From Halobacteriota archaeon (GTDB lineage: Archaea; Halobacteriota; Syntropharchaeia; DAOWMC01): a stretch of DNA of 57,254 nucleotides. The stretch covers positions 1 through 57,254 of the forward strand of contig JAXHTJ010000002.1 of assembly GCA_034190245.1 (NCBI GenBank), written 5' to 3'. Below, in pieces: positions 26,243 to 55,304 of the stretch. Every line of letters begins with the position of its first letter. Positions within the stretch are counted from its first letter, which is position 1. The notes beneath the pieces are model-generated. The model made no database searches, was not told the origin of the DNA, and saw only the letters and a program-made list of their open reading frames with translations. The translations under genes and the position numbers were made by a program.

Positions 26243-26245
26243 CTT

Positions 26246-28285: not shown

Positions 28286-29831
28286 TTATACATACCATCC
28301 CTTCAATTTCTTCTAAAACCGCATCTGGGTTAGTGAAGTATGATTGAACGACGCTCGAGAAATCTTTGTAGTTTCTGATCTCTCTCTCAACCATATATTC
28401 CAGAATTTTGTGCCTGTTCAGAAGCTCCATATCCAGTTCATCCCAGCTCCATCCCCTCTGCTCCATGATATCTCTTAGAATGTATGACTCACTAGGTCTT
28501 TCGTAAGTATCCGAGACCGGGTCCCACCGGAATACCTCATTGATTCTAATATCGTCGCTTCCTGGTTCAAATCCGAGAAACTCAACTATTGATTGAGCAC
28601 GCCTGACACGTTTTCCCCCCACATATGTCATTATCTGAATTGACATAAGATTCAACGACTGGAGCATGGCTCTTGGAACGTTGATCGGATCGTTCTCCAG
28701 GCGACTTATCGCCTCCTCAACACTTCCGGCGTGCATCGTTGAATAGGTGGTGTGTCCTGTCGACATAGCCTGAAACAACGTGAGTGCTTCACTGCCTCGC
28801 ACCTCACCAACGATCATGTACTCCGGACGTTGCCTCAATGCCTGACGGAGTAGTTCGTACATACCGATTTCGCCTTCACCACCCTTCGCAAACGATTCTC
28901 TTGTAATGCTTGCGATCCAATTCTCGTGATGTAACGTAAGTTCATGTGTATCCTCTATTGTTACGATCTTTGACATCGGCGGTATGAAGAGTGATACTGC
29001 ATTGAGACTCGACGTTTTACCCGAAGCCGTTCCACCGACAAATATGAGGCTCCTGTTGTTCTCTATTGCAAGCCACAGGTAAGCAATCGCTTCCAGAGGA
29101 AATGTATTGAAATCGATTAGATCGACCGGAGTGAACGGCTCTTCCCTGAATTTTCTGATCGTGAAAGATCCACCGCGAAGTGTAACCTCCCTTCCAAGGG
29201 ATGCCTGTAGCCTGGAGCCATCCGGCATCGTGGCATTCACGAGCGGATTACCAATCGATATGTGCTTGCCACTCTGTTGAGCAATATTTATTATAAAGGA
29301 GTCGAGGTGCTTCTCGCTGAAGACTATATTTGTCTTGATGTTCTGGTATCTTCTGTGGTACAAAAATATGGGTACATCAGTTCCATCACAGGATATATCT
29401 TCTATAAATGGATCCCTTATCAGTGCATCTATCCTCTTAAATCCGATATAATTCCTCTGTATGTAGTACAACAATTTATAGAGTGATTCCGGTGCCAGAC
29501 GTAGTCTGAAGTTACCAACGATCTCAAGCACCTTCTGCGTAAGAAGACTCTTTTTGTTCTCATCTTTTTCCAGTGTCAGAACGTCCAGTAGATCTTCATA
29601 TATCCTCTCAAGCAGCGTCTTCTCAAATGATGTTAGCTTCGGCTCAGCAACATAGTACAGATACTCCTTCTTATTCTCGTTGTACAGGATCACGATGAAT
29701 GCATAGGGTTCGTTGACCCAATACTGTTCTACTTCGGTGTAGCCCTCCAATCCATCAAAAACCGTCAGTTTACCGTCCTCTTCTGGATTATAGGGTGGCA
29801 GATAAAACTCTTTTTCAACTCTTCGGGGCAT
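28278..29831 (-). CDS. FlaI/ArlI-like type II/IV secretion family ATPase
   Basis: Walker A is FVGGTASGKTSSLN, Walker B/Asp box is MIVGEVRG, and the His box is TGHTTYSTMHA. The N-terminal domain is FlaI-like. Confidence 0.85.
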   Translation of the reverse strand: MPRRVEKEFYLPPYNPEEDGKLTVFDGLEGYTEVEQYWVNEPYAFIVILYNENKKEYLYYVAEPKLTSFEKTLLERIYEDLLDVLTLEKDENKKSLLTQKVLEIVGNFRLRLAPESLYKLLYYIQRNYIGFKRIDALIRDPFIEDISCDGTDVPIFLYHRRYQNIKTNIVFSEKHLDSFIINIAQQSGKHISIGNPLVNATMPDGSRLQASLGREVTLRGGSFTIRKFREEPFTPVDLIDFNTFPLEAIAYLWLAIENNRSLIFVGGTASGKTSSLNAVSLFIPPMSKIVTIEDTHELTLHHENWIASITRESFAKGGEGEIGMYELLRQALRQRPEYMIVGEVRGSEALTLFQAMSTGHTTYSTMHAGSVEEAISRLENDPINVPRAMLQSLNLMSIQIMTYVGGKRVRRAQSIVEFLGFEPGSDDIRINEVFRWDPVSDTYERPSESYILRDIMEQRGWSWDELDMELLNRHKILEYMVEREIRNYKDFSSVVQSYFTNPDAVLEEIEGMVCISE

Positions 29832-29890: not shown

Positions 29891-30787
29891 ATGGGCATAA
29901 GGTTAATTATACTTACCATTCTTAGTACAACTTTGGTGATCGAATTTATATTACATAGGACCCCAACCGGGATTGATTCACTTGATTCTGTCATAGGGGG
30001 TGGGTTCCCATCGGGATCACTTGTGTTGCTTTTAGGAGATGCCGGTGCTGGTAATTTCGAATTTGCATACACATCTGCAATCATGATATCCAATCTAAAA
30101 CGCAAGAACAATGGGCATTCAGAAGACGATGAACTGAAAATTCCCGAAAAAGTCTGCTATATCTCATTCACAAAGTCAGAAGCAGATATAATGGGGGAGC
30201 TCACACGTATCTTCAATCCCCAGGATGTCGATATTCTATTAAAAAATTTGTCTTTTAAGGATTTATCCACCATCTATCACCATCACTCCATCACACCACC
30301 TACATGGATATCGGAGCCGGAGAAGCAGACCCTGACTTCTATTAAAGGTAACAATCTCGGTCTTCTGGAAGAACTTATAACATATTTAAATTCGAATGCC
30401 GCAAACAGCCTTGTGATTCTTGATTCACTAACAAACCTCGTCAGGGCCTCTTACAGCTCGATAGAATGGCAGGACCTGATATCATTTTTTGAGGGTCTTC
30501 AGAGGGTTTCCAAGAGATGGGATGGAGTTATTTATGCAATCCTCGGTGCAAAGATACTCGATGAGAATAAAGAGTCTGAACTCGCTGATTGTGCAGATGG
30601 TGTACTGATCTTTGATTGGATGCAAAAAGGGGAATTTTCAAGGCAACAGATCATGTATGTCAAGAAGTTCAGAGGTCTCCTGCCCCAACTGACGAAGGAC
30701 AACATATCCAAATTTGAGACGAGTGTCACCATACCGAATGGATTTGAGATGAAGAATGTGAGGCTAATAAGGGGGCACAGTAGATGA
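29891..30787 (+). CDS. KaiC/RecA-superfamily protein with a degenerate Walker A and an N-terminal hydrophobic segment
   Basis: PTGIDSLDSVIGGGFPSGSLVLLLGDAGAGNFEF has no GK[ST]. A Walker-B-like strand reads SLVILDSLTNL. The N-terminus is IRLIILTILSTTLVIEFIL. The ORF-track start at 29795 overlaps the divergent ATPase gene, so I use the ATG at 29891. Confidence 0.6.
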   Translation: MGIRLIILTILSTTLVIEFILHRTPTGIDSLDSVIGGGFPSGSLVLLLGDAGAGNFEFAYTSAIMISNLKRKNNGHSEDDELKIPEKVCYISFTKSEADIMGELTRIFNPQDVDILLKNLSFKDLSTIYHHHSITPPTWISEPEKQTLTSIKGNNLGLLEELITYLNSNAANSLVILDSLTNLVRASYSSIEWQDLISFFEGLQRVSKRWDGVIYAILGAKILDENKESELADCADGVLIFDWMQKGEFSRQQIMYVKKFRGLLPQLTKDNISKFETSVTIPNGFEMKNVRLIRGHSR

Positions 30788-31473
30788 AGAGGGTTGGAAC
30801 AGGGATAACAGGGGTAGATAAGATGATAGATGGAGGCATCCCCGAAGGGCACATAGTAGCGCTCGTTGGGCCTTTTGGTGCCGGAAAAACGACCTTTGCA
30901 CTCCAATTCATAAGGGATGGACTCATAAATGATCAAAGCTGCCTTTATATTAGTCTGGAAGAGAGCGATGATAGACTCCTGAAGACTGCACTCAATTACG
31001 GGTGGGACTTAAAACCATATGTTGATAGCGAAAAATTCTCGATATTCAAAGTCGAAGCCGCCGATATAACAAACTCGTTAATACGCCTTGAGAGCACCTT
31101 TCCTACCATGATAAAATCCACAGGGGCAAGTAAGGTAGTAATAGATCCAATTACTCTCTTTGAGATGTTATTCGATGATGAAGCAAAGAGAAGAAAGAAT
31201 GTCTTCGACCTGTTAAAGATAATAAGCGATACAGGAGCAACTACGCTGATCACATCGGAAGTTAATAAGGATCGGACCGGTTCCCGGTACGGATTGATTG
31301 AGTACGTTGTTGACGGTGTCATCATATTACATAAGATCAGGGATGAATTCCGCAGGGTGCACCACGCCATCCAGATAGACAAGATGAGATGGTCAGATCA
31401 CTCAAAGGAGATAAAACCGTATGAGATCACGAAAGAAGGGGTAGAAGTTTATATGAAGTCGAAGGTATATTGA
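30784..31473 (+). CDS. Single-domain KaiC-like ATPase (ArlH/FlaH-size)
   Basis: GITGVDKMIDGGIPEGHIVALVGPFGAGKTTFALQF carries an intact Walker A, and VVIDPITLF is the Walker B. It is 229 aa and its start overlaps the stop of the upstream gene (ATGA). Confidence 0.8.
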   Translation: MKRVGTGITGVDKMIDGGIPEGHIVALVGPFGAGKTTFALQFIRDGLINDQSCLYISLEESDDRLLKTALNYGWDLKPYVDSEKFSIFKVEAADITNSLIRLESTFPTMIKSTGASKVVIDPITLFEMLFDDEAKRRKNVFDLLKIISDTGATTLITSEVNKDRTGSRYGLIEYVVDGVIILHKIRDEFRRVHHAIQIDKMRWSDHSKEIKPYEITKEGVEVYMKSKVY

Positions 31474-31483
31474 GGGGAGAAAG

Positions 31484-32083
31484 ATGAGTCAGATGATGGA
31501 TGATGTACTATACAGTAAGATCGAGATGGCTCTGTTCAGAAGTCATCTGGAAGCGATCGTATCGGTCACAATTGCATCCGCAGATATCTTAAGCGCGGAT
31601 ATGGCACTGCTCAAGTTTTTAGTCAAGGATAAGAAGATGAAGGGATCCATCATCTGCGTGGATCGCGATTATAAACAGATGGAGGAGCTGGCAAAGAGTA
31701 TTGATCTGGGAGGTGATGATCTCTATTACATCGATGCTGTAACTTTATACAATGGCAAAAACCCGGACGCAAGTGCAAGTGACAAAACTGTCTTTATAGA
31801 CTCTCCTTCGGATCTCACATCGATGGATATTGCCATTACTGATATGATAGAGAAACTTGAGAATGGTTTCTTATTGTTCGATTGCCTTTCGTCTTTAAAA
31901 CTGTATAACGATTCAAAAAAGCTCGGAATATTCATGCATGACCTCGCCTCAAAACTGAGACTGTATGGTGTATTCGGCGTAATTTTACTGATAGAAGAAG
32001 ATTCTGATACCTGGCTGCACAGCATAATCAAGGCTTTTTGTGATAAGAATGTCGTTTTAAAGACGGGTAGGGATATAACATGA
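31484..32083 (+). CDS. KaiC/RecA-like pseudo-ATPase, DUF835-like (no P-loop)
   Basis: It is collinear with the C-terminal domains of the 36136 and 39657 proteins. Examples: GSIICVDRDY matches PGLCISRKNS, and IDSPSDLTSMDIAITDMIEKLENGFLLFDCLSSL matches IHPDDLFTKLQSTLINFIKEANDSVILLDGLEYL. The P-loop position reads IASADILS. Confidence 0.45.
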   Translation: MSQMMDDVLYSKIEMALFRSHLEAIVSVTIASADILSADMALLKFLVKDKKMKGSIICVDRDYKQMEELAKSIDLGGDDLYYIDAVTLYNGKNPDASASDKTVFIDSPSDLTSMDIAITDMIEKLENGFLLFDCLSSLKLYNDSKKLGIFMHDLASKLRLYGVFGVILLIEEDSDTWLHSIIKAFCDKNVVLKTGRDIT

Positions 32084-32760
32084 CCGGCACGATAGAAAGA
32101 ATACCATCCGGAATCCGGGGACTCGATGAGATGATCGAGGGGGGATTTCCTTTTCCTTCGACCATACTCGTTGCTGGTGGCACCGGTACTGGTAAGACAA
32201 CACTCTCGATGCAGATTTTGTTTGAAAGCGTCAAAAAGGGAGATAAATGCATCTATTTTTCGACGTTTAGCGAATCGTCTAAATGGACTTTGAAATTCTT
32301 ATCAGGTTTTGATTTTATAAATGAAGAGCTTACAAATGAGATTGAGTTCGTGGAGCTTGGGGTCTATATAAGGGCTGCACGCTCTGTTGAAGAGATACTT
32401 GACGTGGTGGAGAAGAAGATCGAGATGACGAAGCCCAAAAAGATAATCATAGATCCGATATCGATAGTCGGCGATATCCTGAAAAAAGATCATTATAGAA
32501 CTTTCCTGTATGATCTGACCACGCTCACCAAGAATCAGGATGTACTCACGATACTGACCGGAGAGATGCTGCCTGACTCTACATACCCACCAACACTTGC
32601 ATTTATATCGGATGGTGTGATCCTGCTTTACTATGACGTTGAGGGTGAGAAGAGAAGGCACCGCATCGAGATTTTAAAGATGAGGGGCACGAATCATTAT
32701 ACAGGAAGATATCCTTTTGAGATAGATAAGAGTGGCCTAACAATCTACCCGACTAAGTAG
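32080..32760 (+). CDS. Single-domain KaiC-like ATPase
   Basis: IPSGIRGLDEMIEGGFPFPSTILVAGGTGTGKTTLSMQ carries an intact Walker A, and IIIDPISIV is the Walker B. It is 226 aa and its start overlaps the stop of the upstream gene (ATGA). Confidence 0.8.
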   Translation: MTGTIERIPSGIRGLDEMIEGGFPFPSTILVAGGTGTGKTTLSMQILFESVKKGDKCIYFSTFSESSKWTLKFLSGFDFINEELTNEIEFVELGVYIRAARSVEEILDVVEKKIEMTKPKKIIIDPISIVGDILKKDHYRTFLYDLTTLTKNQDVLTILTGEMLPDSTYPPTLAFISDGVILLYYDVEGEKRRHRIEILKMRGTNHYTGRYPFEIDKSGLTIYPTK

Positions 32761-34717
32761 TATCATCATCACTTGTTACAGGTAGTGATACAAAGAATTT
32801 GGATCCAACGCCCTCCTCTGATTCTACCCATATCTTTCCATTGTTCCTACTCAATATCTTCGATATGAGGCTCAGTCCCAGACCTTCGCCTTCAACAGTA
32901 CTTTGGCCGACCCTGTGAAATATTATGAAGACATCTTTCAGATGCCTCTCTGGGATGCCGATTCCATTATCTTCAACACAGTATACGACCTGATCACCCT
33001 CTCTTACCCCTGTGATCTTGATAAATCCCTCTTTTTCAGGATCACGGTATTTCAGTGCATTGTCTACGAGGTTGGAAAATACCTGATTGATCTGTACAGC
33101 GTCACCGACACAGGGGGGCAGTTCACCAATCGATAGATTCATCCCTGCCTCTTTTACCCTGAACTCAAAGCTCTTTTCGATCTCGGATAACATCGAGTTC
33201 ATATCAAGATCCTCAAACTCAAGGGCTGCGCGTCCAAGCCGTGAAAGACGAAGTAGTCCACCAAGAAGTGTATCCATCTTGAGTATGCTCGTCTGGATGA
33301 ACTCCAGTGTTTCAGGAATATCCTCTTCGAAGATGGGTTTTAATTTATTCTGAACCTCTGGCGGAACCTGATCATCATTCAACAAAGAAGACAGTTCCTC
33401 CATAGAATATTTAAGCTCCTTGCTGAAGCCCTGGACATTCAAAAGAGGTGAGCGAAGGTCATGTGATGCGACATAGACGATCTGCTCCAATTCCTTATTC
33501 TTTTCATAAATCTCTTCATTTAGCCTTTCACGTTCCTTTTCTGCACGTTTGCGCTCGGAGACGTCCCTGATAAAGACCAGATCGGCTGGCCTGCCTTCCC
33601 GTTCAATCATGGCCATATTTACATCTGTATATAAGATTTTACCGTCTTTTCTTATAAACTCCAATTCAAGATGGGTGGGTGCATTTTTCCCTTTTTGTCT
33701 GCTTTCATAATTCTCTTTAACCCGATCTTTAAAATCTGGCGATACAAAATTTAGTAACTTCTCTTCCTCGAGATCCTCAATTTCATAACCAAGCATTTTT
33801 GCCATCATGCTATTTGCAAATTTAAAACTCCCATCCTGTATGATCACTATACCGTCGTTTGCCCTCTCAACGAGATTTCTGTACTTCTCTTCCGACTCTC
33901 GAAGTGCCTCTTCCATCCTTTTGATCTCAGTGATATCCATCCCCATACCCACAAGATATAGCCTCTCGGAGATAATGGTCCTCAGACCGGTGAAGAAATG
34001 TGGAATCTCATTTCCGCTCTTTGCTGTAAGCTTTGCCTCTGCAGTGGCTTCGCCCTTCGCAACTACTTCTTGTAGCTCTTCTGCCATGATTTTCTTCTCT
34101 TCTCCGCTGAAAAAATCGAGAATATTCATATTCTTTATCTCTTCGTGAGAATAACCTGAAATTTTTTCGGCATTCTTATTCCACCGTAAAAGTTGCCCTT
34201 TGTTATCAAAGAGATAAAAGACCCCTGGCAAGCTGTTTATCACAGAATCAGAAAATTTCTTCTCCATCAATAGATCCTCTTCAACCCTTTTGCGTTCAAT
34301 GGCATATTTGGTTGTCCGCGAAAGTAGGTCTCCGTCCACATGTCCTTTGACTAGGTAGTCCTGTGCCCCCTCCCGCACCGCCTCTGTGCCGATGGATTCA
34401 TCATTAAGACCTGTTAGAACTATAATCGGCATTTCCGGTGCGTGAGTATGCAACCTTACGAATGTGTCAAGCCCCCAACTGTCAGGGAGTCCAAGATCAG
34501 ACAAGACTACATCAAAATATTCCTCATCGAGGATTTTAAATGCCTCTCTTAAACTTTCAATCTGGATTACATCGAACTTGACAGTGCCAGCCTCTATAAG
34601 CATCTCCCTTATCAACCTTGCATCTCCAGGGTTGTCCTCAATCAAAAGAATTCTAATTGGCTTCTCAATCTTCTCAGTCTCAACTACAGTGCTCTGCATC
34701 CTAACCCCCTTCCCCAA
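32753..34717 (-). CDS. Hybrid sensor histidine kinase (REC-PAS-PAS-HisKA-HATPase)
   Basis: The REC domain reads ILLIEDNPGD...VLSDLGLPD. Two PAS domains are followed by the H-box ASHDLRSPL, the N-box FSNLVDNALKY and the G-box DNGIGIP...GEGLGLS. Confidence 0.85.
   Translation of the reverse strand: MGKGVRMQSTVVETEKIEKPIRILLIEDNPGDARLIREMLIEAGTVKFDVIQIESLREAFKILDEEYFDVVLSDLGLPDSWGLDTFVRLHTHAPEMPIIVLTGLNDESIGTEAVREGAQDYLVKGHVDGDLLSRTTKYAIERKRVEEDLLMEKKFSDSVINSLPGVFYLFDNKGQLLRWNKNAEKISGYSHEEIKNMNILDFFSGEEKKIMAEELQEVVAKGEATAEAKLTAKSGNEIPHFFTGLRTIISERLYLVGMGMDITEIKRMEEALRESEEKYRNLVERANDGIVIIQDGSFKFANSMMAKMLGYEIEDLEEEKLLNFVSPDFKDRVKENYESRQKGKNAPTHLELEFIRKDGKILYTDVNMAMIEREGRPADLVFIRDVSERKRAEKERERLNEEIYEKNKELEQIVYVASHDLRSPLLNVQGFSKELKYSMEELSSLLNDDQVPPEVQNKLKPIFEEDIPETLEFIQTSILKMDTLLGGLLRLSRLGRAALEFEDLDMNSMLSEIEKSFEFRVKEAGMNLSIGELPPCVGDAVQINQVFSNLVDNALKYRDPEKEGFIKITGVREGDQVVYCVEDNGIGIPERHLKDVFIIFHRVGQSTVEGEGLGLSLISKILSRNNGKIWVESEEGVGSKFFVSLPVTSDDDTT
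32778..33556. repeat. Direct repeat copy 1 (779 bp), covering the kinase-core coding region
   Basis: Base-by-base comparison with 34760-35538 (offset 1982) found only two mismatches, at 32809 and 32869. Confidence 0.9.
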
Positions 34718-34719
34718 AA

Positions 34720-35769
34720 TTATTCATAATTCTTACGCCCTTCTTTTTTATCGATAACAACAGGTAGTGATACAAAGAATTTGGATCCCACGCCCTCCTC
34801 TGATTCTACCCATATCTTTCCATTGTTCCTACTCAATATCTTCGATATGAGACTCAGTCCCAGACCTTCGCCTTCAACAGTACTTTGGCCGACCCTGTGA
34901 AATATTATGAAGACATCTTTCAGATGCCTCTCTGGGATGCCGATTCCATTATCTTCAACACAGTATACGACCTGATCACCCTCTCTTACCCCTGTGATCT
35001 TGATAAATCCCTCTTTTTCAGGATCACGGTATTTCAGTGCATTGTCTACGAGGTTGGAAAATACCTGATTGATCTGTACAGCGTCACCGACACAGGGGGG
35101 CAGTTCACCAATCGATAGATTCATCCCTGCCTCTTTTACCCTGAACTCAAAGCTCTTTTCGATCTCGGATAACATCGAGTTCATATCAAGATCCTCAAAC
35201 TCAAGGGCTGCGCGTCCAAGCCGTGAAAGACGAAGTAGTCCACCAAGAAGTGTATCCATCTTGAGTATGCTCGTCTGGATGAACTCCAGTGTTTCAGGAA
35301 TATCCTCTTCGAAGATGGGTTTTAATTTATTCTGAACCTCTGGCGGAACCTGATCATCATTCAACAAAGAAGACAGTTCCTCCATAGAATATTTAAGCTC
35401 CTTGCTGAAGCCCTGGACATTCAAAAGAGGTGAGCGAAGGTCATGTGATGCGACATAGACGATCTGCTCCAATTCCTTATTCTTTTCATAAATCTCTTCA
35501 TTTAGCCTTTCACGTTCCTTTTCTGCACGTTTGCGCTCTGTAATGTCCCTAAACAATAGTAGATTTGATGCTATTCCTTTGTAATTAAAGTCACCTACGG
35601 CATTGAGTGCATCCAACAGCAATCTAATTTGATCTTCATAGTAATCAATCAGCTCGATTGATTCCTTTCTGCTTTCTGGCACATTCTCTTTTTGTAAAGG
35701 AGTATTATCGTCCTGATTTTCAAAAATGGTTGAATGTCCCGTTTTGAACATCTTTTCTAATGTCTCCAT
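34720..35769 (-). CDS. Histidine kinase with a short unique N-terminus and a duplicated kinase core
   Basis: From ERKRAEKERERL to FFVSLPV the C-terminal part is identical in protein sequence to the 32753 gene. The N-terminal roughly 85 aa are unique. Confidence 0.8.
   Translation of the reverse strand: METLEKMFKTGHSTIFENQDDNTPLQKENVPESRKESIELIDYYEDQIRLLLDALNAVGDFNYKGIASNLLLFRDITERKRAEKERERLNEEIYEKNKELEQIVYVASHDLRSPLLNVQGFSKELKYSMEELSSLLNDDQVPPEVQNKLKPIFEEDIPETLEFIQTSILKMDTLLGGLLRLSRLGRAALEFEDLDMNSMLSEIEKSFEFRVKEAGMNLSIGELPPCVGDAVQINQVFSNLVDNALKYRDPEKEGFIKITGVREGDQVVYCVEDNGIGIPERHLKDVFIIFHRVGQSTVEGEGLGLSLISKILSRNNGKIWVESEEGVGSKFFVSLPVVIDKKEGRKNYE
34760..35538. repeat. Direct repeat copy 2 (779 bp)
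   Basis: See copy 1. The identical antisense ORFs in the track (32903-33136 = 34885-35118; 33087-33353 = 35069-35335) are by-products of this repeat. Confidence 0.9.
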
Positions 35770-36043
35770 TTTTTATCCTCCATTGTATGTTTAAGTTTCT
35801 AAAAACATGCCTCTCCAACAATTAAGAGATAAGTATAATTTTACGTCTGACTGTTTACTTTTCATCAGCTTGCACTCGGATTCTGATCTTTTAAGTTCAG
35901 TAACCCCTTTGGGGTATTTTTTATTTCAAACATTTCATTTAAAAGTCGGTTTTTTTACGTCCATCGTTTATCCAATCCCCCATTAACATTGTATTTTCAT
36001 TCATCGCTGGTTCTCTGTTTAAGTGATATTAACCCCCACAATA

Positions 36044-36081
36044 ATACGGGATTTATGAACACATATATATACATTTTGACC
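36044..36081 (-). promoter_or_regulatory. Shared promoter-like motif, copy A
   Basis: The minus strand reads GGTCAAAATGTATATATATGTGTTCATAAATCCCGTAT, followed by a leader homologous to that of copy B (GTATTATT..GGGGTTA...GGGGATTGGAT..ATGGAC). Confidence 0.35.
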
Positions 36082-36135
36082 GTCAATTACCAGATCCAAT
36101 GCAAAATTTCATAATTTGAGATAATTGAGAACGGC

Positions 36136-38169
36136 TCAATCATCCACCCCACAAAATAACTCCATCTCTTTCTTCAAAGCATGAAATCCCCTGGGGTCTA
36201 GCGTCTTTGAATCCAGTGGAATTATCAACCGTGAAGTCGATGCCATCAGATAATCGTTAATTGCCTGAACGAATTTTAGTACAGTGGCAAAATCGTTCTG
36301 GGATACCAGGTATTCCAACCCATCGAGTAGAATAACGCTATCATTTGCTTCTTTTATGAAATTTATAAGCGTAGATTGTAATTTTGTGAAGAGATCATCC
36401 GGGTGTATGCAGGCCACCTCTGACACTTCATTTCTTGTAAGCCATATGACAGGCGTCTTCTCCAGATGGTATCTCTTCTTCACCTTTACCGAGTTCTTCC
36501 GTGAGATGCATAAGCCGGGTTTTCCGTGTTTCACGAGATCTACAAATATCTTATAGCCCAGATCGGAAGCTTCGTCGTCGATAAGATAAGCATCGCCCTG
36601 GTCGAGTTCATACTCCATCTCCGTATCTATTCTCTCCTCTTCAACAGGTTCTATTGAAAGGCCAGTAAGCTCCGATAGATCCTTTAGGGTGACGATGAGT
36701 CCATTCTCCTCTCCAGCTTCTTTTATAACGGCTGTAGAAAGACTCAGAGGTATCCTGGTTCCATCCTTCTTTGTGAAATCTATATTGAAGTCCTCTTTAC
36801 CTTCCATTTTTATCTCCAGTCCCATAATTGAAGATAGGGGCTTATTCTCATACTCTTCGACTCCAAGCAGCTTTTTTGCGCTTTTGTTCATCGTGTTTAC
36901 ATTCTGGGCAAGATCAGTTGAGATTGTTGCGACTGGGGATTCTTCGATCAGATTTTCCAGCCTTTCTTTGTATGTTAGTAGTGCTCTTTCTGCACGTTTG
37001 CGCTCGGTGATGTCACTCATGATTCCTATTGAACCGGTCATTTCACCATTGTGATCTTTGAGTACACTCAATGAGATGACCACGTCGATGACTTCATTTC
37101 CTTTATTGATGACTCTGGTCTCAAACTGATGCTTCACACCCTTACGCCTCACGTGCTGCTTCCTCAGTCTTTCCCATTCATCCGGGGAGTATAGAGAGCT
37201 TACCGGTCTCATGTAAAGATCGTCCCTGCCCATCCCGAGAAGATCCTCAGCGTGCTTGTTCCAGGAGACTATCCTCTCTTTTTCATCAGTGACAGTTATC
37301 GCAACGGCCGAATTCTCAAAGATGGTTCGGTACATCTCTTCGGCTAGCTGGAGCTCTAACTCCACTCGTTTTCGTTCCGTTATATCTGATACGAAGCCTT
37401 CTATGATCTCAAGCTCCCCATCTTCGGTAAATTGTCCCGATCCCTTTTCTAGGACCCATTTCTCCTCACCGTTTACGGTGTGGATCCGGTATGTGAGCTG
37501 AAACGGACGTTTCTCTTCCACTGCCGAGTCGATCTCAGAAAGGACCATCTTCCGATCGTCCTCGTCTATGAACTGCATATAAGCGATCCCTCCCAGATCG
37601 GATAACTGGTAGCCCGTGAGCCCCTTAACACCCTCACTTGCAAATACCATCGTCCTATCTTCGTCGTTTCGACACCGATATGCCATGCCAGGAAGATTCT
37701 TCATCAGATTTGAGATCGATCGCTGGCTTTTACGTAGCCTGGCCTCGGCCTCTCCCAATCGCCTCTCGACTGTGATCTGCTCAACAACCTGTTTTAACAC
37801 CTGTGGTAACAGATCCATGAAGCTGGCATCTTTCACAATATACTCACGAGCGCCGAGCTTCATCATCTCTACTGCTATCTTCTCATCACCCTGACCTGTG
37901 ACAACTATAAATGGAATGTCACTCCCCTTCTCGCGGAGCTTCTCAACAATCTGCTTTCCCGTCATATCGGGCAACCGATAATCGAGCAGGAGCAGGATAT
38001 ACTGTTTTTTATCTATCTTAATAATGGTTTCGTCACCATTTGATGCGAACTCAGTCTGAAAACCGATCCTATCAAAAGTTCTTTTGATGAGGTGATGTAA
38101 CTGCTCATCGTCCTCGGCAACAAGGATGGTACTTTTAACTTCGACACCATTTTCGCTCAATTGCATCAT
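36136..38169 (-). CDS. Response-regulator receiver-PAS(x3)-DUF835-like domain protein
   Basis: The REC domain reads ILVAEDDEQ...LLLDYRLPDM...KD. PAS repeats end in ITERKR junctions. The C-terminus reads KHGKPGLCISR...PVIWLT...VILLDGLEYL...IIPLD. I set the start at MMQLSENG (38169) because the ORF-track extension to 38382 overlaps the upstream gene by about 200 nt. Confidence 0.75.
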   Translation of the reverse strand: MMQLSENGVEVKSTILVAEDDEQLHHLIKRTFDRIGFQTEFASNGDETIIKIDKKQYILLLLDYRLPDMTGKQIVEKLREKGSDIPFIVVTGQGDEKIAVEMMKLGAREYIVKDASFMDLLPQVLKQVVEQITVERRLGEAEARLRKSQRSISNLMKNLPGMAYRCRNDEDRTMVFASEGVKGLTGYQLSDLGGIAYMQFIDEDDRKMVLSEIDSAVEEKRPFQLTYRIHTVNGEEKWVLEKGSGQFTEDGELEIIEGFVSDITERKRVELELQLAEEMYRTIFENSAVAITVTDEKERIVSWNKHAEDLLGMGRDDLYMRPVSSLYSPDEWERLRKQHVRRKGVKHQFETRVINKGNEVIDVVISLSVLKDHNGEMTGSIGIMSDITERKRAERALLTYKERLENLIEESPVATISTDLAQNVNTMNKSAKKLLGVEEYENKPLSSIMGLEIKMEGKEDFNIDFTKKDGTRIPLSLSTAVIKEAGEENGLIVTLKDLSELTGLSIEPVEEERIDTEMEYELDQGDAYLIDDEASDLGYKIFVDLVKHGKPGLCISRKNSVKVKKRYHLEKTPVIWLTRNEVSEVACIHPDDLFTKLQSTLINFIKEANDSVILLDGLEYLVSQNDFATVLKFVQAINDYLMASTSRLIIPLDSKTLDPRGFHALKKEMELFCGVDD

Positions 38170-38185
38170 ACTCCTTTTGAAGATA

Positions 38186-39613
38186 TTACCCCACAGAAAC
38201 GGCCAAACAAGCCATTTTTCTCTTTTTTGGGATCGTGAAATAAAATGTAGAACCTTTGCCTTCCCCGCTACTTTCGGCCCATATCTTACCGCCCTGCTTC
38301 TCGACGATGCGCTTGCAAATTGAGAGGCCAAGACCCGATGAATCGAGATCATGTCTGGATGCATCAGCCTTGTAGAACTCATCGAAGATTTGACTCAACT
38401 CTTCCCCGGCCATACCTACCCCTGTATCCTTCACTGATACTATGACAAAATCATCACAATTTTTTGAATTGATGGTTATTGTACCGCCGCCCTCATAGCT
38501 GTACTTTACGGCATTGGAGATGAGATTGTCAATGATCTCCTTACCATACTTTGTAATAAACTTCGCCTCAACACGACTCGCCTCTCCTCCCGACATCAGG
38601 TTCTTGAATTGCTTCAGGCAGTGTACTATGCTGTCAGGATGTATTATGTCAAACAAGGATAGATCAATAACCTCCTCCTTTGTATAACCGAGTGTCTTCA
38701 ACCATGTTCGGTTAACAAAAAGCAGGTGACCGCTGGGACTGACGCTTTGAATGAGGTCATTTGCATTGTCAAAGAAGTCCTGCAACCGTGCCTGACTCAC
38801 ACGTAAGTTCTCTTCAGCCTTCTTACGTTCGGTGATATCAGATATGAAACCTTCCAATGCCTCTAATTCTCCATCGGGGGAAAACACACCCGATCCCTTC
38901 TCCCAGACCCATTTTACTCCACCATCTAAAGTATTGATCCGATAGAAGAGTTCGAAAGGACGTTTCTCTTCCACGGACGATTGAATCTCTGTAAAGACCA
39001 TCTCTTTATCATCCGGGTGAATGAGTAAGGAATAACTGATCCCTTTCAGATGGGAGTGCTCATGGCCGGTGAGTTCCACACCTCCCTCGCTTGAGAATAT
39101 CATCGTCCTATCCTCGTCATTTTGACACCTGTACGCCATGCCGGGAAGGTTCTTCATCAGGTTAGAGATAGCACGCTCTCTTTCGTGCAATTTGGTCTCA
39201 GTTTCGACCAAATGTCTTTCGGTCTTAAGTTGCTCGCTCACGCGCTCAACAATCTGAGGCAGAAGATCGATCAAACCCGGATCTTTGACAACATAGTCGC
39301 GAGCACCGAGTTTCATCATTGTCACAGCAGTATTTTCATCACCGTTTCCAGTGACCACTATGAAAGGGATATTGTGATGTGTTCTGGCAAGCTCCTCTAT
39401 CACATGCTTTCCGGTCATATCCGGTAAGCTGTAATCCAGCAAGACAAGGGTCCTTGGGCTTTCGTTTATCTTTGCAATGGCTTCGGCGCCGTTTGATGCG
39501 GTATCAGTCTGAAAACCATGCCTATTAAGAGTATTTATAATCAGGCGAGATAACCCTTCATTATATTCTACCACGAGAATTTTCTCTTCAACGCCTGCAC
39601 TTCCCTCATTCAT
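38186..39613 (-). CDS. REC-PAS-(truncated PAS)-HATPase protein lacking a DHp/H-box
   Basis: The REC acidic pocket reads VVEYNEG, where paralogs have EDDE. The acceptor context LLDYSLPDM is kept. The second PAS runs straight into the N-box (KYGKEIIDNLISNAVKYS, nt about 38533). No SHDLR-type H-box is present. Confidence 0.7.
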   Translation of the reverse strand: MNEGSAGVEEKILVVEYNEGLSRLIINTLNRHGFQTDTASNGAEAIAKINESPRTLVLLDYSLPDMTGKHVIEELARTHHNIPFIVVTGNGDENTAVTMMKLGARDYVVKDPGLIDLLPQIVERVSEQLKTERHLVETETKLHERERAISNLMKNLPGMAYRCQNDEDRTMIFSSEGGVELTGHEHSHLKGISYSLLIHPDDKEMVFTEIQSSVEEKRPFELFYRINTLDGGVKWVWEKGSGVFSPDGELEALEGFISDITERKKAEENLRVSQARLQDFFDNANDLIQSVSPSGHLLFVNRTWLKTLGYTKEEVIDLSLFDIIHPDSIVHCLKQFKNLMSGGEASRVEAKFITKYGKEIIDNLISNAVKYSYEGGGTITINSKNCDDFVIVSVKDTGVGMAGEELSQIFDEFYKADASRHDLDSSGLGLSICKRIVEKQGGKIWAESSGEGKGSTFYFTIPKKRKMACLAVSVG

Positions 39614-39656
39614 ACCAGATTAAAACCCCCATCAGTCCATGGCACTTTTTAAACCT

Positions 39657-41357
39657 CTATTTTCCCTTAAATAGCACCATCTCCTTCTTCAGACCATGAA
39701 ATCTCTGTGGATCAAGGGCATTTGAATCAAGAGGGATTATCAATCGAGATTTTGACATCATCAGATCGTCATTTATCGCCTGGACAAATTTTAAAACAGA
39801 AGAAAAATCGTTCTGCGAGATCAGGTACTCAAGACCATCCATGAGTACAACACCATCATTTGCCTCTTTTATGAAATTGACAAGTGTTGATTGTAGCTTG
39901 GTGATGAGATCAGTGGGATGTATACAGGTCACTTCCGTTACTTCATTTCGAGTTAGCCAGATGACGGGTGTCTTCTCTAACTTATACCTCTCCTTGATCC
40001 TGATAGGATTCTGTCTCGAGATGCATAGCCCCGGTTTACCGTGTTTTACTAGATCCACAAATACCTCGAAACCGATATCGGATGAATCACTATCAATGAG
40101 GTAAGCATTCCCATTATCTATCTCAAACTCCATATCAGTCTCAACTCTCTCATCTTCTTCTACTGGTTTTATATCGAGACCAGAAAGCTTTGATATGTCC
40201 TCTAGTGTGATTATAAGTCCTTTCTTCTCTTTTCCTTCCCTTAAGACGACAGTAGAGACATTTAGAGGTATTCTGGGGCCCTTTGCTTTCTTGAACTTGA
40301 GGCTGAAGTCATTCTTAGTCATCATCACCATCTCCACCCCTAGAATTGAAGATAGATGCTTATTTTCATACTTTTCGACTTCAAGTAGCTTTTTTGCGCT
40401 TTTATTCATGGTTATTATAGTTCCGGAGAGGTCGGTTGAAATTGTTGCAATCGGGGATTCCTCAACCAACTTTTCTAACCTTTCTTTATATACAAGAAGC
40501 TCCTCTTCCGCCATTTTTCGATCGGTGATATCCATTATAAAGCCTTCCAGAGCATTGAGGCCCCCATCAGGCGAAAATACCCCTAATCCTTTCTCCAGAA
40601 CCCATCTCTCCTCATCATCGGTAGAATTGATACGATAAGTGATTTCGAAAGGACGTTTCTCTTCCACTGCCGAGTCGATCTCAGAAAGGACCATCTCCAG
40701 ATCGTCCGGGTGTATAAGTTCGGCATAAGAGCTTTCTTTCAGGTCAAGGGGCTCGTAGCCAGAGAGTTTTATGCAGCCCTCGCTAACGAATATCATTGTC
40801 CTCTCTTCGTCGTTTTCGCACCTGTATGCCATGCCGGGAAGGTTACCCATCAGAGTTGTGATGGTTCGCTGGCTTTCGCGCAGCCTGATCTTTGTTTCAG
40901 CAAGTCTACCCTCGGTGCCCAACTGTTTGATAGCCCGACGTACCACCATCGGTAAAAGATCCATGAAACGGGCGTCTTTCACAATATAGTCGCGGGCACC
41001 GAGCTTCATCATATCCACCGCCACCCTCTCATCGCCCTGCCCTGTCATTACTACGAACGGTACCTGGACCTTCTTCTCGATAAGCTTCTCAACGATCTCT
41101 TTTCCGGTCATATCCGGTAAGCCGTAGTCCAGCAATAGTAAAATATTCTGGTTATTACCTATCTTTGCAATAGCTTCAGTACCGTTTGTTGCTAAGTCAC
41201 ACTGAAAACCGGCCCTCTTGAGATGCTTTGCAATCAGGCGGCCTAAACCTTCGTCATCTTCGACTATAAAGAGGGTTCTTTTAACCTCGGCATTTCCTTC
41301 ATCCTTATCGATCATCGACTCTATAGACCTCTGTCGGATTACGACCTCATTACTCAC
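39657..41357 (-). CDS. Response-regulator receiver-PAS-PAS-DUF835-like domain protein
   Basis: It is a paralog of the 36136 gene (LFIVEDDEG, LLLDYGLPDM, KHGKPGLCISRQNP, PVIWLTRNEV, VVLMDGLEYL). It overlaps the upstream gene by 8 nt. Confidence 0.75.
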   Translation of the reverse strand: MSNEVVIRQRSIESMIDKDEGNAEVKRTLFIVEDDEGLGRLIAKHLKRAGFQCDLATNGTEAIAKIGNNQNILLLLDYGLPDMTGKEIVEKLIEKKVQVPFVVMTGQGDERVAVDMMKLGARDYIVKDARFMDLLPMVVRRAIKQLGTEGRLAETKIRLRESQRTITTLMGNLPGMAYRCENDEERTMIFVSEGCIKLSGYEPLDLKESSYAELIHPDDLEMVLSEIDSAVEEKRPFEITYRINSTDDEERWVLEKGLGVFSPDGGLNALEGFIMDITDRKMAEEELLVYKERLEKLVEESPIATISTDLSGTIITMNKSAKKLLEVEKYENKHLSSILGVEMVMMTKNDFSLKFKKAKGPRIPLNVSTVVLREGKEKKGLIITLEDISKLSGLDIKPVEEDERVETDMEFEIDNGNAYLIDSDSSDIGFEVFVDLVKHGKPGLCISRQNPIRIKERYKLEKTPVIWLTRNEVTEVTCIHPTDLITKLQSTLVNFIKEANDGVVLMDGLEYLISQNDFSSVLKFVQAINDDLMMSKSRLIIPLDSNALDPQRFHGLKKEMVLFKGK

Positions 41358-42570
41358 TATTCTCGCCTCTCTTATTTTTATCTCTCACAAATGGCAAAGA
41401 TACAAAGAATTTTGACCCCTCACCTTCAGTGGATTCAACCCGGATCCCCCCGTTGTTGCGGCTCAAAATCTTGGAGACAATGCTCAGTCCCAGACCCTCA
41501 CCTTCAGTGGATTTTGGATCAAGCCTGCGGAATATTATGAAGATATCTTTTTGATTCTTCTCGGGAATGCCGAGTCCATTATCCTCAACACAATAGACGA
41601 CCTCTCCTCCTTTTCTCTCCCCCGTGATCTTTATAATCCCATGCTTCTCAGGATCACGATACTTCAGTGCATTGTCAACCAGATTGGAGAAGACCTGGTT
41701 GATCTGTACAGCGTCCCCTATGCAAGGAGGGAGATCACCTGTTACTACACTCATCCCTGCTTCTTTGACCCTGAACTCGAAGCTCTTTTTAATATCTGAT
41801 AACATCGCGTTCATGTCCAGGTCTTCAAAGTTAAGGGCAGCACGTCCCAGCCGGGAAAGCCGCAAGAGACCCGTAAGTAAAGTATCCATCTTGGAAACAC
41901 TTGCCTGGATGAACTCAAGTGTATCAGGAATGTCCTCTTCAAAGATGGGTGAAAGGTTCTCCCACACATCTTGCGGAATCTCTACATCATTTAAAATTGA
42001 AGCCAATTCTTCCATGGTGTAGCAGAGTTCCTTGCTGAAGCCCTGGACATTCACAAGCGGTGAACGCAGGTCGTGGGATGTTACATGGATGACTGTTTCC
42101 AGTTCTTTGTTCTTTTCTGTGATCTCTTCGTTCAACTTCGCAAGCGCTCTCTCTGCCCTCTTGCTCTCCATTACAAGGTGCGTCAGTTCAGTGACATCCT
42201 GCACTGCAAAGAGCGCATTGAAGTCATCTTCATCTTGTGCAGGCACTGCCGTTATGATGGTGTGCTGAATCATTGGTTCGCCGTTTGGAAGTTTTGAAGA
42301 AAAGAGCTGTTTGTGGAGTTGGGAAGAGAATATTGTCGGAGGACCCCCTTCAAATATGGAGTCTATTCGGATATGATATTTCGGATCTTTTAAGTGTGGG
42401 AAACGCTCTCTCAGATCCGTACCGATGATATCTTCTCTATTTATCCCTGTCCAGTCTTCAAGACAACTGTTCCAGAAGATAACTTTGTAATCTCTGTCGA
42501 TCACACACATCCCCACCGGAGCGGAATCAAGCACATCAAATCCTTGCATCGAGATCTCTTGCTTCATCAT
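41350..42570 (-). CDS. PAS-sensor histidine kinase
   Basis: One PAS domain (VGMCVIDRDYKVIFWN), the H-box TSHDLRSPL, the N-box FSNLVDNALKY, and DNGLGIP...GEGLGLS. Its start overlaps the stop of the CheC-like gene (ATGA). Confidence 0.85.
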   Translation of the reverse strand: MMKQEISMQGFDVLDSAPVGMCVIDRDYKVIFWNSCLEDWTGINREDIIGTDLRERFPHLKDPKYHIRIDSIFEGGPPTIFSSQLHKQLFSSKLPNGEPMIQHTIITAVPAQDEDDFNALFAVQDVTELTHLVMESKRAERALAKLNEEITEKNKELETVIHVTSHDLRSPLVNVQGFSKELCYTMEELASILNDVEIPQDVWENLSPIFEEDIPDTLEFIQASVSKMDTLLTGLLRLSRLGRAALNFEDLDMNAMLSDIKKSFEFRVKEAGMSVVTGDLPPCIGDAVQINQVFSNLVDNALKYRDPEKHGIIKITGERKGGEVVYCVEDNGLGIPEKNQKDIFIIFRRLDPKSTEGEGLGLSIVSKILSRNNGGIRVESTEGEGSKFFVSLPFVRDKNKRGENSE

Positions 42571-43184
42571 ATTGTGTTAACTCCCTCGCAGACGATGATA
42601 GATTCGACTGCTTCGAGGAGCATGTCGAAACTGCTCAGTTCAAAAAATAAGGCAACATCGCCTTCAATTTTTAATTCTTCAATCAAAAACCTTGTCCGTG
42701 CAAGCAGGATAACAGTATCAGATCCAATTTCCGGGGGCAAAAGATTTGTAGAGTCTCCTTCTACATAGCTTGGAACAGAATATTTGAGATTGAACTTGAG
42801 TATGTTGCTTATGGATCCTACAACGGTATTCAGAACTATGTTACCGACTTCATTTAGAGTGCCCGCACGGATTGAATCGAGATTCAGATCATCTCCTTCA
42901 TCACCGGTAAATGCAGTTATTAGCTTCGATGCACTTTCTGCGGGAAATATTAATTCCGCTGTTCCCGAAGTGTCTCCCTTAAAACCCAGTTTAACTGATG
43001 CAAGTCGATTTTCGGTATTTGTTTCCATCTCTCTTTGCAACTCGTCAGGAGATAGCACCTTTATATATGGAACTTGCAGTTGAATGTGCGAATTTAGCAT
43101 TGTGTTCAGCACATCTGCACCATGTCCGACTCCGATGTTTATGAGCTCCCTTAATGCATCTATCTGTTTGTCTGTGGGCTGCAT
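42567..43184 (-). CDS. CheC-family CheY-P phosphatase-like protein
   Basis: DALRELIN...(22 aa)...P is an exact match to the CheC consensus [DS]-x3-E-x2-N-x22-P. A second pseudo-repeat, GTLNEVGN...(22 aa)...P, has Gly at the first position. Confidence 0.7.
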   Translation of the reverse strand: MQPTDKQIDALRELINIGVGHGADVLNTMLNSHIQLQVPYIKVLSPDELQREMETNTENRLASVKLGFKGDTSGTAELIFPAESASKLITAFTGDEGDDLNLDSIRAGTLNEVGNIVLNTVVGSISNILKFNLKYSVPSYVEGDSTNLLPPEIGSDTVILLARTRFLIEELKIEGDVALFFELSSFDMLLEAVESIIVCEGVNTI

Positions 43185-43558
43185 AGCTCCTCGTTTTTAT
43201 TAGAACTGAGGACCTTTTGAAGTGCTCCAAGCATTTCATCTTCTTTCGGTACTTTATTCAGAAAATCGGCGACCCCAAGTTCGAAACATTTCGTCTTCGT
43301 TGTTTCCTGGATGTCTGCTGAAAGGACAATCACAGGAATAGAAAGTCCTTTTTCTTTAAGTTTCTCAAGTACCCCAAAACCGTCCATTTCTGGCATTAGA
43401 ATGTCTAAAAAGATACATTCCGGTTTTTCTGCTACTGCCTTTTCAAGAGCTTCAACTCCGTCTGAAGCTTCAATTACTTCATGGCCTTCGGTTTTTAAGG
43501 CTTTCTTTACAATCTGGCGAATCAACATGGAATCATCTACAACTAAAATTCGGGCCAT
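43160..43558 (-). CDS. CheY-like single-domain response regulator
   Basis: ILVVDDSMLIRQ, FLDILMPEMDG, and VIVLSAD. It overlaps the CheC-like gene by 25 nt. Confidence 0.8.
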   Translation of the reverse strand: MARILVVDDSMLIRQIVKKALKTEGHEVIEASDGVEALEKAVAEKPECIFLDILMPEMDGFGVLEKLKEKGLSIPVIVLSADIQETTKTKCFELGVADFLNKVPKEDEMLGALQKVLSSNKNEELCSPQTNR

Positions 43559-53534: not shown

Positions 53535-53565
53535 GTGTTTCATTATTTTGTGCTTCCAAATCAAC

Positions 53566-55047
<1,482 letters not shown>

Positions 55048-55057
55048 AACAATAAAA

Positions 55058-55087
55058 TACCAATCGAAGTCGATAAATTGTTAGGAC
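55058..55087 (+). other. 3' strand of the 16S processing stem (BHB)
   Basis: It is complementary to 53505-53534, as described for the 5' strand. Confidence 0.75.
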
Positions 55088-55129
55088 AGCAATATCAATT
55101 AATATGTGATTGCGCTGGGGCTTGGTTTT

Positions 55130-55202
55130 GGGCTCGTAGCTCAGCTGGAAGAGCGCCGCCTTTGCGAGGCGGAGGCCCTGGGTTCAAATCCCAGCGAGTC
55201 CA
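55130..55202 (+). tRNA. tRNA-Ala (UGC) in the 16S-23S spacer
   Basis: GGGCTCGTAGCTCAGCTGG...CCGCC-TTTGCGA-GGCGG...GGTTCAAATCC...CGAGTCCA. It folds as a cloverleaf with anticodon TGC and the G3:U70 alanine identity pair. There is no encoded CCA and no intron. Confidence 0.95.
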
Positions 55203-55304
55203 TTTATGCACTTGATGTTCTTAGGACATCAGGGAAGGGCTGATAGCAACTGCTAAATGAAGCCGTGTATATGCTTTGCGACTCAGACGCTAACTGGATT
55301 TAGT

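Follow-up and report, generated by a model that had tools for sequence, protein, structure and literature searches.

The window analyzed here, 57,254 nucleotides (nt) of contig JAXHTJ010000002.1 from a Halobacteriota archaeon, encodes two response regulators in which a receiver (REC) domain and PAS domains precede a C-terminal DUF835 domain, and an operon of four KaiC-like genes (A to D) whose third member, gene C, is a stand-alone protein of 199 amino acids (aa). Profile alignments and predicted structures show DUF835 and the 199-aa protein to be two related kinds of inactivated KaiC, single RecA/KaiC-fold domains in which the core sheet and Walker B aspartate are retained and the P-loop and catalytic glutamates are lost. 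With these residues gone, neither is expected to hydrolyze ATP itself. The best explanation, to which we assign a probability of about one-half, is that they are non-catalytic KaiC-fold adaptors linking a phosphorelay to KaiC or pilus ATPases. The features that carry the argument are as follows:

29891..30787 (+): KaiC-like gene A, predicted inactive, start codon approximate; hhalign against KaiC, probability 98.2%, E 5.4e-14.
30784..31473 (+): KaiC-like ATPase B, 229 aa, intact P-loop GPFGAGKT; Pfam KaiC E 2.5e-56, 191 bits.
31484..32083 (+): gene C, 199-aa stand-alone P-loop-less KaiC-fold protein (DUF7504-like); Pfam DUF7504 E 5.2e-8.
32080..32760 (+): KaiC-like ATPase D, 226 aa, intact P-loop GGTGTGKT; Pfam KaiC E 2.2e-41, 142 bits.
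36136..38169 (-): response regulator REC-PAS-PAS-PAS-DUF835 (open reading frame listed as 36136-38382); Pfam Response_reg E 1e-20, three PAS stretches, DUF835 E 5.3e-35.
36163..36564 (-): DUF835 domain of the 36136 product, aa 607-740; Pfam 120.6 bits, cut-off 33.1.
39657..41357 (-): response regulator REC-PAS-PAS-DUF835; Pfam Response_reg E 7.3e-20, PAS, DUF835 E 1.4e-35.
39678..40079 (-): DUF835 domain of the 39657 product, aa 427-560; Pfam 122.5 bits, cut-off 33.1; modeled with AlphaFold.
41350..42570 (-): PAS histidine kinase immediately upstream of the 39657 regulator, from open reading frame coordinates and translation.

Both regulators match Pfam DUF835 (PF05763) with E-values near 1e-35, the matched domains span nearly the whole 136-position model, and the two copies are 73% identical; neither has a Pfam KaiC match. 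An earlier note on this DNA had named DUF835 as the family of all three domains. This holds for the two regulators but not for the 199-aa protein, which passes the cut-off of Pfam DUF7504 (PF24336; 34 bits, cut-off 27), an uncharacterized archaeal family. The 199-aa protein falls under the Pfam cut-offs for DUF835 (17.6 bits vs. 33.1, E 3.4e-3, model positions 57-121 only) and for KaiC (PF06745; 19.8 bits vs. 26.6), and no NCBIfam model matches it. Its kinship to DUF835 is visible with profiles only. Pairwise BLASTP against a DUF835 domain yields nothing (E 0.43), and hhalign aligns the 199-aa family to DUF835 over 130 columns (probability 95.4%, E 1.8e-8) and to KaiC over 163 columns (probability 96.1%, E 2.9e-9), compared with 10 columns for a REC control (probability 0.8%, E 0.067). 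An absence of kinship in profile searches, which the note had named as the result that would speak against a link among the domains, is thus not what was found. Judged from these profiles, the 199-aa protein is related to DUF835 at the superfamily level only and belongs to a separate, DUF7504-like family without a P-loop.

The collinear motifs from which a relationship was first proposed are present in all three products. They lie at residues 618-628 (KHGKPGLCISR), 644-649 (PVIWLT), 659-692 (a block that begins with IHPxDL and ends with DGLEYL), and 719-724 (LIIPLD) of the 36136 product, at residues 438-448, 464-469, 479-512, and 539-544 of the 39657 product, and at residues 54-61 (GSIICVDR), 80-87 (LYYIDAVT), 105-138, and 166-173 (VILLIEED) of the 31484 product, which is the 199-aa protein. 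hhalign pairs GSIICVDR with GLCISR, LYYIDAVT with PVIWLT, IDSPSDL with IHPTDL, FLLFDCLSSL with VVLMDGLEYL, and VILLIE with LIIPLD, the same pairing that was made by eye. The first of these motifs is collinear as claimed, but it aligns to the beta-2 strand and catalytic Glu-Glu of KaiC and not to the P-loop. An eroded P-loop lies ∼25 residues upstream of it (TIASADIL in the 199-aa protein and DSDSSDIG in DUF835), and at the Glu-Glu position hhalign places DR for the 199-aa protein (NR in its family consensus) or SR for DUF835. A derived arginine at the former catalytic site was considered as a synapomorphy of the two families and rejected, because the arginines are two columns apart in hhalign.

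As had been claimed, the Walker A motif (G-x4-G-K-[ST]) is missing from all three domains; the neighboring products of genes B and D have it. The motif occurs in none of 91 members of the 199-aa family and in 50 of 52 neighboring KaiC proteins, and 2 of 86 DUF835 proteins have it somewhere in the whole protein. Predicted structures are consistent with these assignments. The AlphaFold model of the DUF835 domain of the 39657 product (predicted local distance difference test [pLDDT] 88.8, predicted template modeling score [pTM] 0.84) has FlaH/ArlH (4yds) as its best PDB match in Foldseek (E 1.2e-6, template modeling score [TM] 0.65), with further matches to KaiC-like PH0284, KaiC, RecA, Elp456, and RAD51 paralogs. 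For the 199-aa protein (pLDDT 68, pTM 0.68), the best PDB match is KaiC (2gbl; E 4e-6, TM 0.58), and FlaH is lower in the list. All three domains thus have a KaiC/RecA-type fold without a Walker A in profile alignments and predicted structures, and on the models both DUF835 and the 199-aa protein are of the inactivated KaiC type, in which the RecA/KaiC fold is retained and Walker A and the catalytic glutamates are lost.

Both families occupy the output or transmitter position of signaling proteins, or stand alone. DUF835 is found C-terminal to PAS/GAF arrays and to membrane domains with five to seven transmembrane helices, and the P-loop-less domain of the 199-aa family is C-terminal in dCache-HAMP receptors, a KaiB-V4R protein, and long TPR/SNAP proteins (P0136, P0052, P0041, and P0098). 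Position bears on the possibility that these are ligand-sensing input domains. Such a role has been proposed for the related MEDS domain, another inactivated KaiC, which is treated as a sensor in histidine kinases in the part of the 2018 census of archaeal regulators compared here (Galperin 2018, PMC5847659), and the conserved Walker B aspartate together with conserved polar residues could line a pocket. The same part of the census describes MEDS and the iKaiC-REC fusions of Methanosarcinaceae as inactivated KaiC-derived domains that are, like DUF835, fused to two-component modules. However, MEDS (PF14417) is N-terminal and regarded as sensory, iKaiC-REC (PF06745) reverses the domain order, and the Pfam families differ from DUF835. 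The domains studied here are always C-terminal, after REC, PAS, GAF, dCache-HAMP, or membrane sensor modules, which is where a transmitter is placed, and their P-loop and catalytic residues are gone. We therefore consider a sensory role improbable.

An even less probable reading is that gene C is a decaying, functionless duplicate of KaiC. The 199-aa protein lacks all catalytic motifs, and word-indexed homolog searches gave four matches each, with three close homologs for this protein. An exhaustive profile search that started from the protein and these three homologs instead recovered 1453 cluster representatives, 485 of them at E <= 1e-10. Most of the 150 relatives listed are stand-alone proteins of ∼185 aa, and the top matches show conserved columns. 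Among the top 106 relatives, 102 match DUF7504, 92 match KaiC, and 63 match DUF835; Pfam Elong_Iki1 matches three relatives. In addition, synteny is conserved, a ribosome-binding site (GGGGAG) precedes the ATG of gene C, and the gene is translationally coupled to gene D. Family size and conservation effectively rule out decay.

The KaiC-like operon alternates between genes predicted to be inactive and active. The product of gene A has no Walker A (G-x4-G-K-[ST]): its P-loop reads GDAGAGNF, in which the glycines are kept and Lys-Thr is replaced, and its catalytic Glu-Glu is changed to Thr-Lys. The Lys-to-Asn change is conserved, as the ortholog at another locus of the window lineage (L081) has GDAGAGNI. 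Gene A exceeds the Pfam KaiC cut-off through its first 31 residues only (30.5 bits vs. 26.6), and gene B, which like gene D encodes an ordinary KaiC-like ATPase of one domain, passes NCBIfam TIGR03880 (KaiC_arch_3; 259.6 bits, cut-off 249.45). The predicted order A-B-C-D is thus inactive-active-inactive-active, and stop and start codons overlap in ATGA at A/B and at C/D, which are both inactive-to-active junctions. The alternating order and these overlaps suggest that A/B and C/D may be made as inactive/active pairs that would form mixed KaiC assemblies in fixed proportion. The NCBIfam ArlH equivalog (cut-off 215 bits) is not reached by D (63 bits), A (43 bits), or B (38 bits), and the 199-aa protein has no match to it; no ArlH model is among the top 25 NCBIfam matches listed for the two DUF835 regulators.

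Approximately 60 AT-rich bases separate this plus-strand operon from a divergent, compact pilus-type operon on the minus strand (24011-29831), which has three genes:

24011..26242 (-): secreted pilin or adhesin of this operon, a 743-aa protein with an archaeal prepilin-type N-terminus (MKNLLKDDDAVSELIGAILLLAIAVIF).
26246..28285 (-): TadC/PilC-like membrane platform protein with two T2SSF domains; Pfam T2SSF E 6.4e-29, two stretches.
28278..29831 (-): PilB3/FlaI-like type IV pilus assembly ATPase; Pfam T2SSE E 3.7e-33, with PilB3_N and PilB3_C.

The N-terminus of the 743-aa protein reads as a class III signal, and Pfam Pilin_N matches it under cut-off (aa 9-33, E 6.5e-4). The platform protein has ArlJ/UpsF-like NCBIfam matches, all under cut-off. 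Because the ATPase scores 393 bits against the NCBIfam FlaI model, whose cut-off is 550, it is a paralog and not the archaellum ATPase. An archaeal type IV pilus locus combines a VirB11/PilB-type ATPase, a TadC/PilC platform, and a class III signal protein in one operon, and the window has all of these in this operon. By gene content, it is predicted to be a PilB3-type pilus operon and not an archaellum. The divergent arrangement makes it probable that the KaiC assembly regulates this pilus machine. We propose that the KaiC set would act on the PilB3/TadC/pilin machine as ArlH acts on ArlI.

Most response regulators of archaea have no DNA-binding output, and little is known of how they relay signals. 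On genomic grounds only, it has been suggested that KaiC-like ATPases are signaling hubs in archaea. In both window regulators, the translations retain the acidic pocket, phospho-acceptor aspartate, threonine, and lysine of the REC domain (EDDE, LLLLDY-LPD, (V/M)TGQGD, and Y-I-V-K). The histidine kinase gene at 41350..42570 overlaps the 39657 regulator gene by 8 nt and likely encodes its cognate kinase, and pairs of a kinase and a REC-DUF835 gene recur in other genomes. The 36136 regulator probably starts at Met72 (nt 38169) and has 677 aa: the first 71 codons of its 748-aa open reading frame (38170-38382, minus strand) lie ahead of REC and share their sequence with the 3' end of the upstream gene, and the shorter length resembles those of 676- and 685-aa relatives at the locus with the closest relatives of the regulators (L001).

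From domain identities, loss of catalytic motifs, fold, homology, and gene linkage, we infer hetero-oligomerization, control by phosphorylation, and the pilus as target. The PAS histidine kinase would phosphorylate the REC aspartate, and the output of the REC-PAS-DUF835 regulators would be protein binding, with phosphorylation controlling if, or in what way, the C-terminal pseudo-KaiC joins the KaiC-like ring or the pilus ATPase. DUF835 and the 199-aa domains may thus be non-catalytic partners of hexameric ATPases encoded nearby, either as subunits or as adaptors, similar to Elp4/5/6 of Elongator and the RAD51 paralogs. These RecA-fold proteins have degenerate nucleotide sites and form rings or filament caps, either among themselves or together with active paralogs. 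They are, however, eukaryotic and function in tRNA modification and recombination, so that the likeness to DUF835 is one of fold and logic only. Docking of a pseudo-KaiC module onto the KaiC/FlaI-like assembly, which the earlier note had suggested, is conjectural. We advance only tentatively the more specific scheme in which P-loop-less KaiC-fold proteins (DUF835 and DUF7504-like) insert into or cap active KaiC rings on PilB-type ATPases and a DUF835 fused to or paired with REC puts pilus assembly under a His-Asp phosphorelay. If true, archaea would have a first defined route from two-component signaling to a type IV pilus machine other than the archaellum, and the proposed KaiC signaling hub would gain a concrete mechanism.

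Gene neighborhoods of the 199-aa family correlate with KaiC and pilus genes. We surveyed 80 metagenome loci that represent the DSLSTLxxYN sub-family and not the window's own clade, and counts are corrected for one long KaiC match that is RadA. A KaiC gene shorter than 305 aa is present in 35 of 80 loci and lies within 600 bp in 31; at least two KaiC genes occur in 19 loci and pilus ATPase/TadC genes in 21, and KaiC and pilus genes are found together in 14. When loci of at least 4 kb are considered, KaiC or pilus genes are present in 30 of 49. The recurrent order is a pair of KaiC genes on one strand, the P-loop-less KaiC gene, and then two TadC genes and an ATPase gene. The survey thus supports a strong link of this family to KaiC pairs and pilus genes. 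In the window lineage, locus L081 has a 199-aa homolog at 65% identity and the same organization, with TadC and ATPase genes on one strand and, divergent from them, A-like (287 aa), KaiC (229 aa), C-like (198 aa), and KaiC (226 aa) genes. A second locus (L082) keeps KaiC, C-like, and KaiC, and the convergent gene that directly abuts its operon ends in DUF835 (Pfam E 2.5e-22). That gene occupies the place of a histidine kinase gene in the window:

32753..34717 (-): REC-PAS-PAS histidine kinase, convergent on the KaiC operon and the first gene of a two-component array; from translation.

Another metagenome contig (L119, 2502-13539) has, in order, two REC genes, a kinase, four tandem 199-aa-family genes, a REC gene, a kinase, and a KaiC-like gene with an N-terminal extension, and is an independent mix of two-component and pseudo-KaiC genes.

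DUF835 genes were surveyed at 80 loci from reference genomes that were annotated by phmmer/hmmsearch. In nine loci, the DUF835 gene has a true KaiC gene no more than 3 kb away, compared with one in the larger 3-10 kb zone (two of three far KaiC matches were RadA, and counts are corrected), and a pilus ATPase gene lies within 3 kb in nine loci, compared with one far. Linkage of DUF835 to KaiC-like and pilus ATPase genes in other genomes, which had been set as a test of the idea, is therefore found in a substantial minority of loci and in several arrangements. At least five arrangements were observed across Methanotrichaceae, Altiarchaeota, Thermoplasmata, and the window lineage. In locus L003, a REC-PAS-DUF835 gene is followed after 8 bp by KaiC. 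A Methanotrichaceae locus (L016) has kinase-REC, REC-PAS-PAS-DUF835, and KaiC genes together, and in Altiarchaeota (L004) a gene for a 283-aa DUF835 protein precedes KaiC. In six loci of Thermoplasmata/Methanomassiliicoccales, a membrane DUF835 protein with five to seven helices is encoded divergently from an unknown gene and KaiC. The KaiC proteins near these membrane DUF835 genes (L023, L026, L048, L051, L056, and L058) have an unusual Walker A, GAPG(S/T)(M/L)KS, in which Met or Leu replaces the Gly before Lys, and the gene between encodes a conserved soluble protein of 435 aa that has no Pfam match.

In nine other Thermoplasmata loci, stand-alone REC and stand-alone DUF835 genes, spaced by 4 bp, converge on a pilus ATPase operon that has an unknown 180-aa gene, the pilus ATPase, and an 8-helix protein of 570-650 aa (L046 4627-9690, L054, L061, L066, L067, L072, L073, L077, and L079). 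A tenth locus with independent gene calls (L163) agrees. The 648-aa and 437-aa genes that lie between DUF835 and its ATPase or KaiC neighbors in Thermoplasmata have no Pfam match; the former, with eight predicted membrane helices, probably encodes a divergent TadC. No KaiC gene is in the flanks of the nine loci or of L163, and DUF835 could in these cases bind the pilus ATPase directly. Taken further, pseudo-KaiC domains would dock on the PilB/FlaI-like ATPase hexamer as mimics of ArlH and without KaiC partners. ArlH provides a precedent because it is a single-domain KaiC-like protein that forms a hexamer on the ArlI ATPase, with phosphorylation modulating the interaction. FlaH/ArlH is also the top structural match of DUF835, the DUF835 and 199-aa models have the ArlH fold, and ArlH is likewise encoded beside a FlaI-type ATPase. 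But ArlH binds ATP and autophosphorylates, and it requires ATP binding to bind ArlI. A domain without a P-loop cannot bind as ATP-bound ArlH does. In addition, Foldseek scores of the DUF835 model to FlaH and to KaiC are nearly equal, the neighbor in other lineages is KaiC and not a pilus ATPase, no ArlH model is at cut-off among the four KaiC-operon proteins scanned (scores are far under it), and the window locus is a PilB3-type pilus and not an archaellum. Direct mimicry of ArlH is therefore unlikely, though less so than a sensory role.

The ATP requirement of ArlH also weighs against the adaptor proposal, as do several other observations that we consider together here. Approximately three-quarters of the surveyed DUF835 loci have neither KaiC nor a pilus ATPase in the flanks at hand, and these unlinked loci include all Methanocella paralogs, whose proteins are PAS/GAF arrays ending in DUF835, and the kinase and REC-DUF835 pairs of Methanofastidiosum/Thermococci. 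Linkage also seems to have arisen few times independently, about five to seven. DUF835 identity within each Thermoplasmata group is 63-90%, such that each group represents roughly one evolutionary event. Distances of 3.4 and 6.9 kb separate the window's DUF835 genes from the KaiC operon, and their place inside a large array of paralogous two-component genes could be due to chance. In the L081 locus, the gene after the KaiC operon encodes a phosphoenolpyruvate-utilizing enzyme and not a DUF835 protein. The L001 locus has two tandem REC-PAS-DUF835 genes with unrelated genes upstream, and its contig ends right after. Lastly, the direct hhalign comparison of DUF835 to KaiC is at noise (E 0.007 and 0.003 with KaiC alignments of 12 and 47 sequences, respectively; REC control 0.003). 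When PDB sequences were searched with the DUF835 alignment as the profile, FlaH was the only match (E 0.44); the profile of the 199-aa family matched KaiC (2.5e-5) and FlaH (2.5e-3). Homology of DUF835 to KaiC thus depends on the 199-aa family as a bridge and on the predicted structure.

Many of these observations would be expected if DUF835 served only for self-association (as a dimer or hexamer) or as a scaffold, lacked any particular tie to the KaiC or pilus genes around it, and owed its proximity in the window to a large two-component array that came to lie beside a KaiC/pilus locus. This is the main rival to the adaptor proposal, and we regard it as possible, if doubtful. RecA-fold domains commonly self-assemble, neither KaiC nor a pilus ATPase is close by at most DUF835 loci, L001 and L081 have no linkage, and the window array consists of recent paralogs, including an exact duplication of 780 nt. 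Conversely, KaiC and pilus ATPase genes are each enriched within 3 kb relative to the 3-10 kb zone (nine vs. one), adjacency is found in at least five gene arrangements and in several lineages, and the sister family without a P-loop shows tight linkage to KaiC pairs. These patterns are more consistent with non-catalytic adaptors that link a phosphorelay to KaiC or pilus ATPases.

Parts of this system have been described. The REC-PAS-PAS-DUF835 (PF05763) architecture is catalogued as an inactivated KaiC-like ATPase output of 36 archaeal regulators from Methanomicrobia and Thermoplasmata (Galperin 2018, PMC5847659, Table 2), and the window regulators have the same architecture and Pfam family and pass the Pfam cut-off by a wide margin. 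The part of the census compared here gives architecture only, with no partner, neighborhood, experiment, or linkage to KaiC or pilus ATPases. The suggestion in the earlier note of an uncharacterized type of response-regulator output is thus valid with respect to experiments, but the architecture itself is already on record (PMC5847659). A strong association of KaiC-family ATPases with the type IV pilus loci of archaea has been reported, and KaiC genes beside or co-transcribed with VirB11/TadC, including in Methanomicrobia, have been proposed to encode regulators whose second component is unknown (Makarova, Koonin, and Albers 2016, PMC4858521). In contrast to our findings, the part of that study compared here addresses active KaiC ATPases and does not mention a P-loop-less third gene or an alternating inactive/active operon. 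In the literature searched, DUF835 is mentioned only in the 2018 census (PMC5847659) and DUF7504 is not mentioned.

What appears new is that a DUF7504-like gene regularly occurs as the third member of KaiC-pair/pilus modules and that inactive and active genes alternate in the KaiC operon. No published report of either was found in the literature compared, to which the iKaiC paper (Makarova 2017, mBio) does not belong. The adjacencies of DUF835 to pilus ATPase and to KaiC genes are likewise new relative to this literature, but may be partly published. The domain type and the KaiC-pilus link were therefore already known, and the functional idea is, on sequence evidence, a reasonable one with real comparative support. 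The locus and the surveys define a compact, testable system in which a kinase would signal to a REC-PAS-pseudoKaiC regulator, and the regulator through a mixed set of active and inactive KaiC to a PilB3-type pilus ATPase. If the interactions are confirmed, two DUF families would gain a function, and methanogen-related and other uncultured archaea would gain a mechanism for control of pili or adhesion. If they are not, what remains is a correct but already catalogued domain annotation.

The two-component array that includes both DUF835 regulators is long and extends along the minus strand from 32753 on. Positions 32775-33560 and 34757-35542 are a repeat of ∼780 nt with essentially 100% identity and a spacing of 1982 nt. 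By this repeat, the C-terminal kinase half of the 32753-34717 gene is copied into 34720-35769, whose 90-aa N-terminus differs. The repeat is either a very recent duplication or an assembly artifact. Between the two DUF835 regulators, 38186-39613 (-) encodes a REC-PAS-PAS protein in which the second PAS runs straight into HATPase_c, with no HisKA/DHp in Pfam; it is probably an internally deleted kinase that is non-functional or non-canonical. Directly upstream of the PAS kinase and REC-PAS-DUF835 pair, 42567-43558 (-) has genes for a CheC/CheX-like phosphatase and a CheY-like single-REC protein, and no CheA, CheW, or receptor gene is seen near them.

Two loci of the 199-aa family survey (L092 11008-14058 and L132 3360-6410) encode pilus ATPases of 1017 aa whose matching halves (28-274 and 797-1016) are split by ∼520 residues, which could be an intein or other large insertion. 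At the right end of the window, an rRNA operon (53564-57254, plus strand) has the 16S gene at 53564-55047, a spacer tRNA-Ala(TGC) at 55129-55203, and the 23S gene at 55310-57254, which is cut by the window end. This operon accounts for the rise in GC content there.

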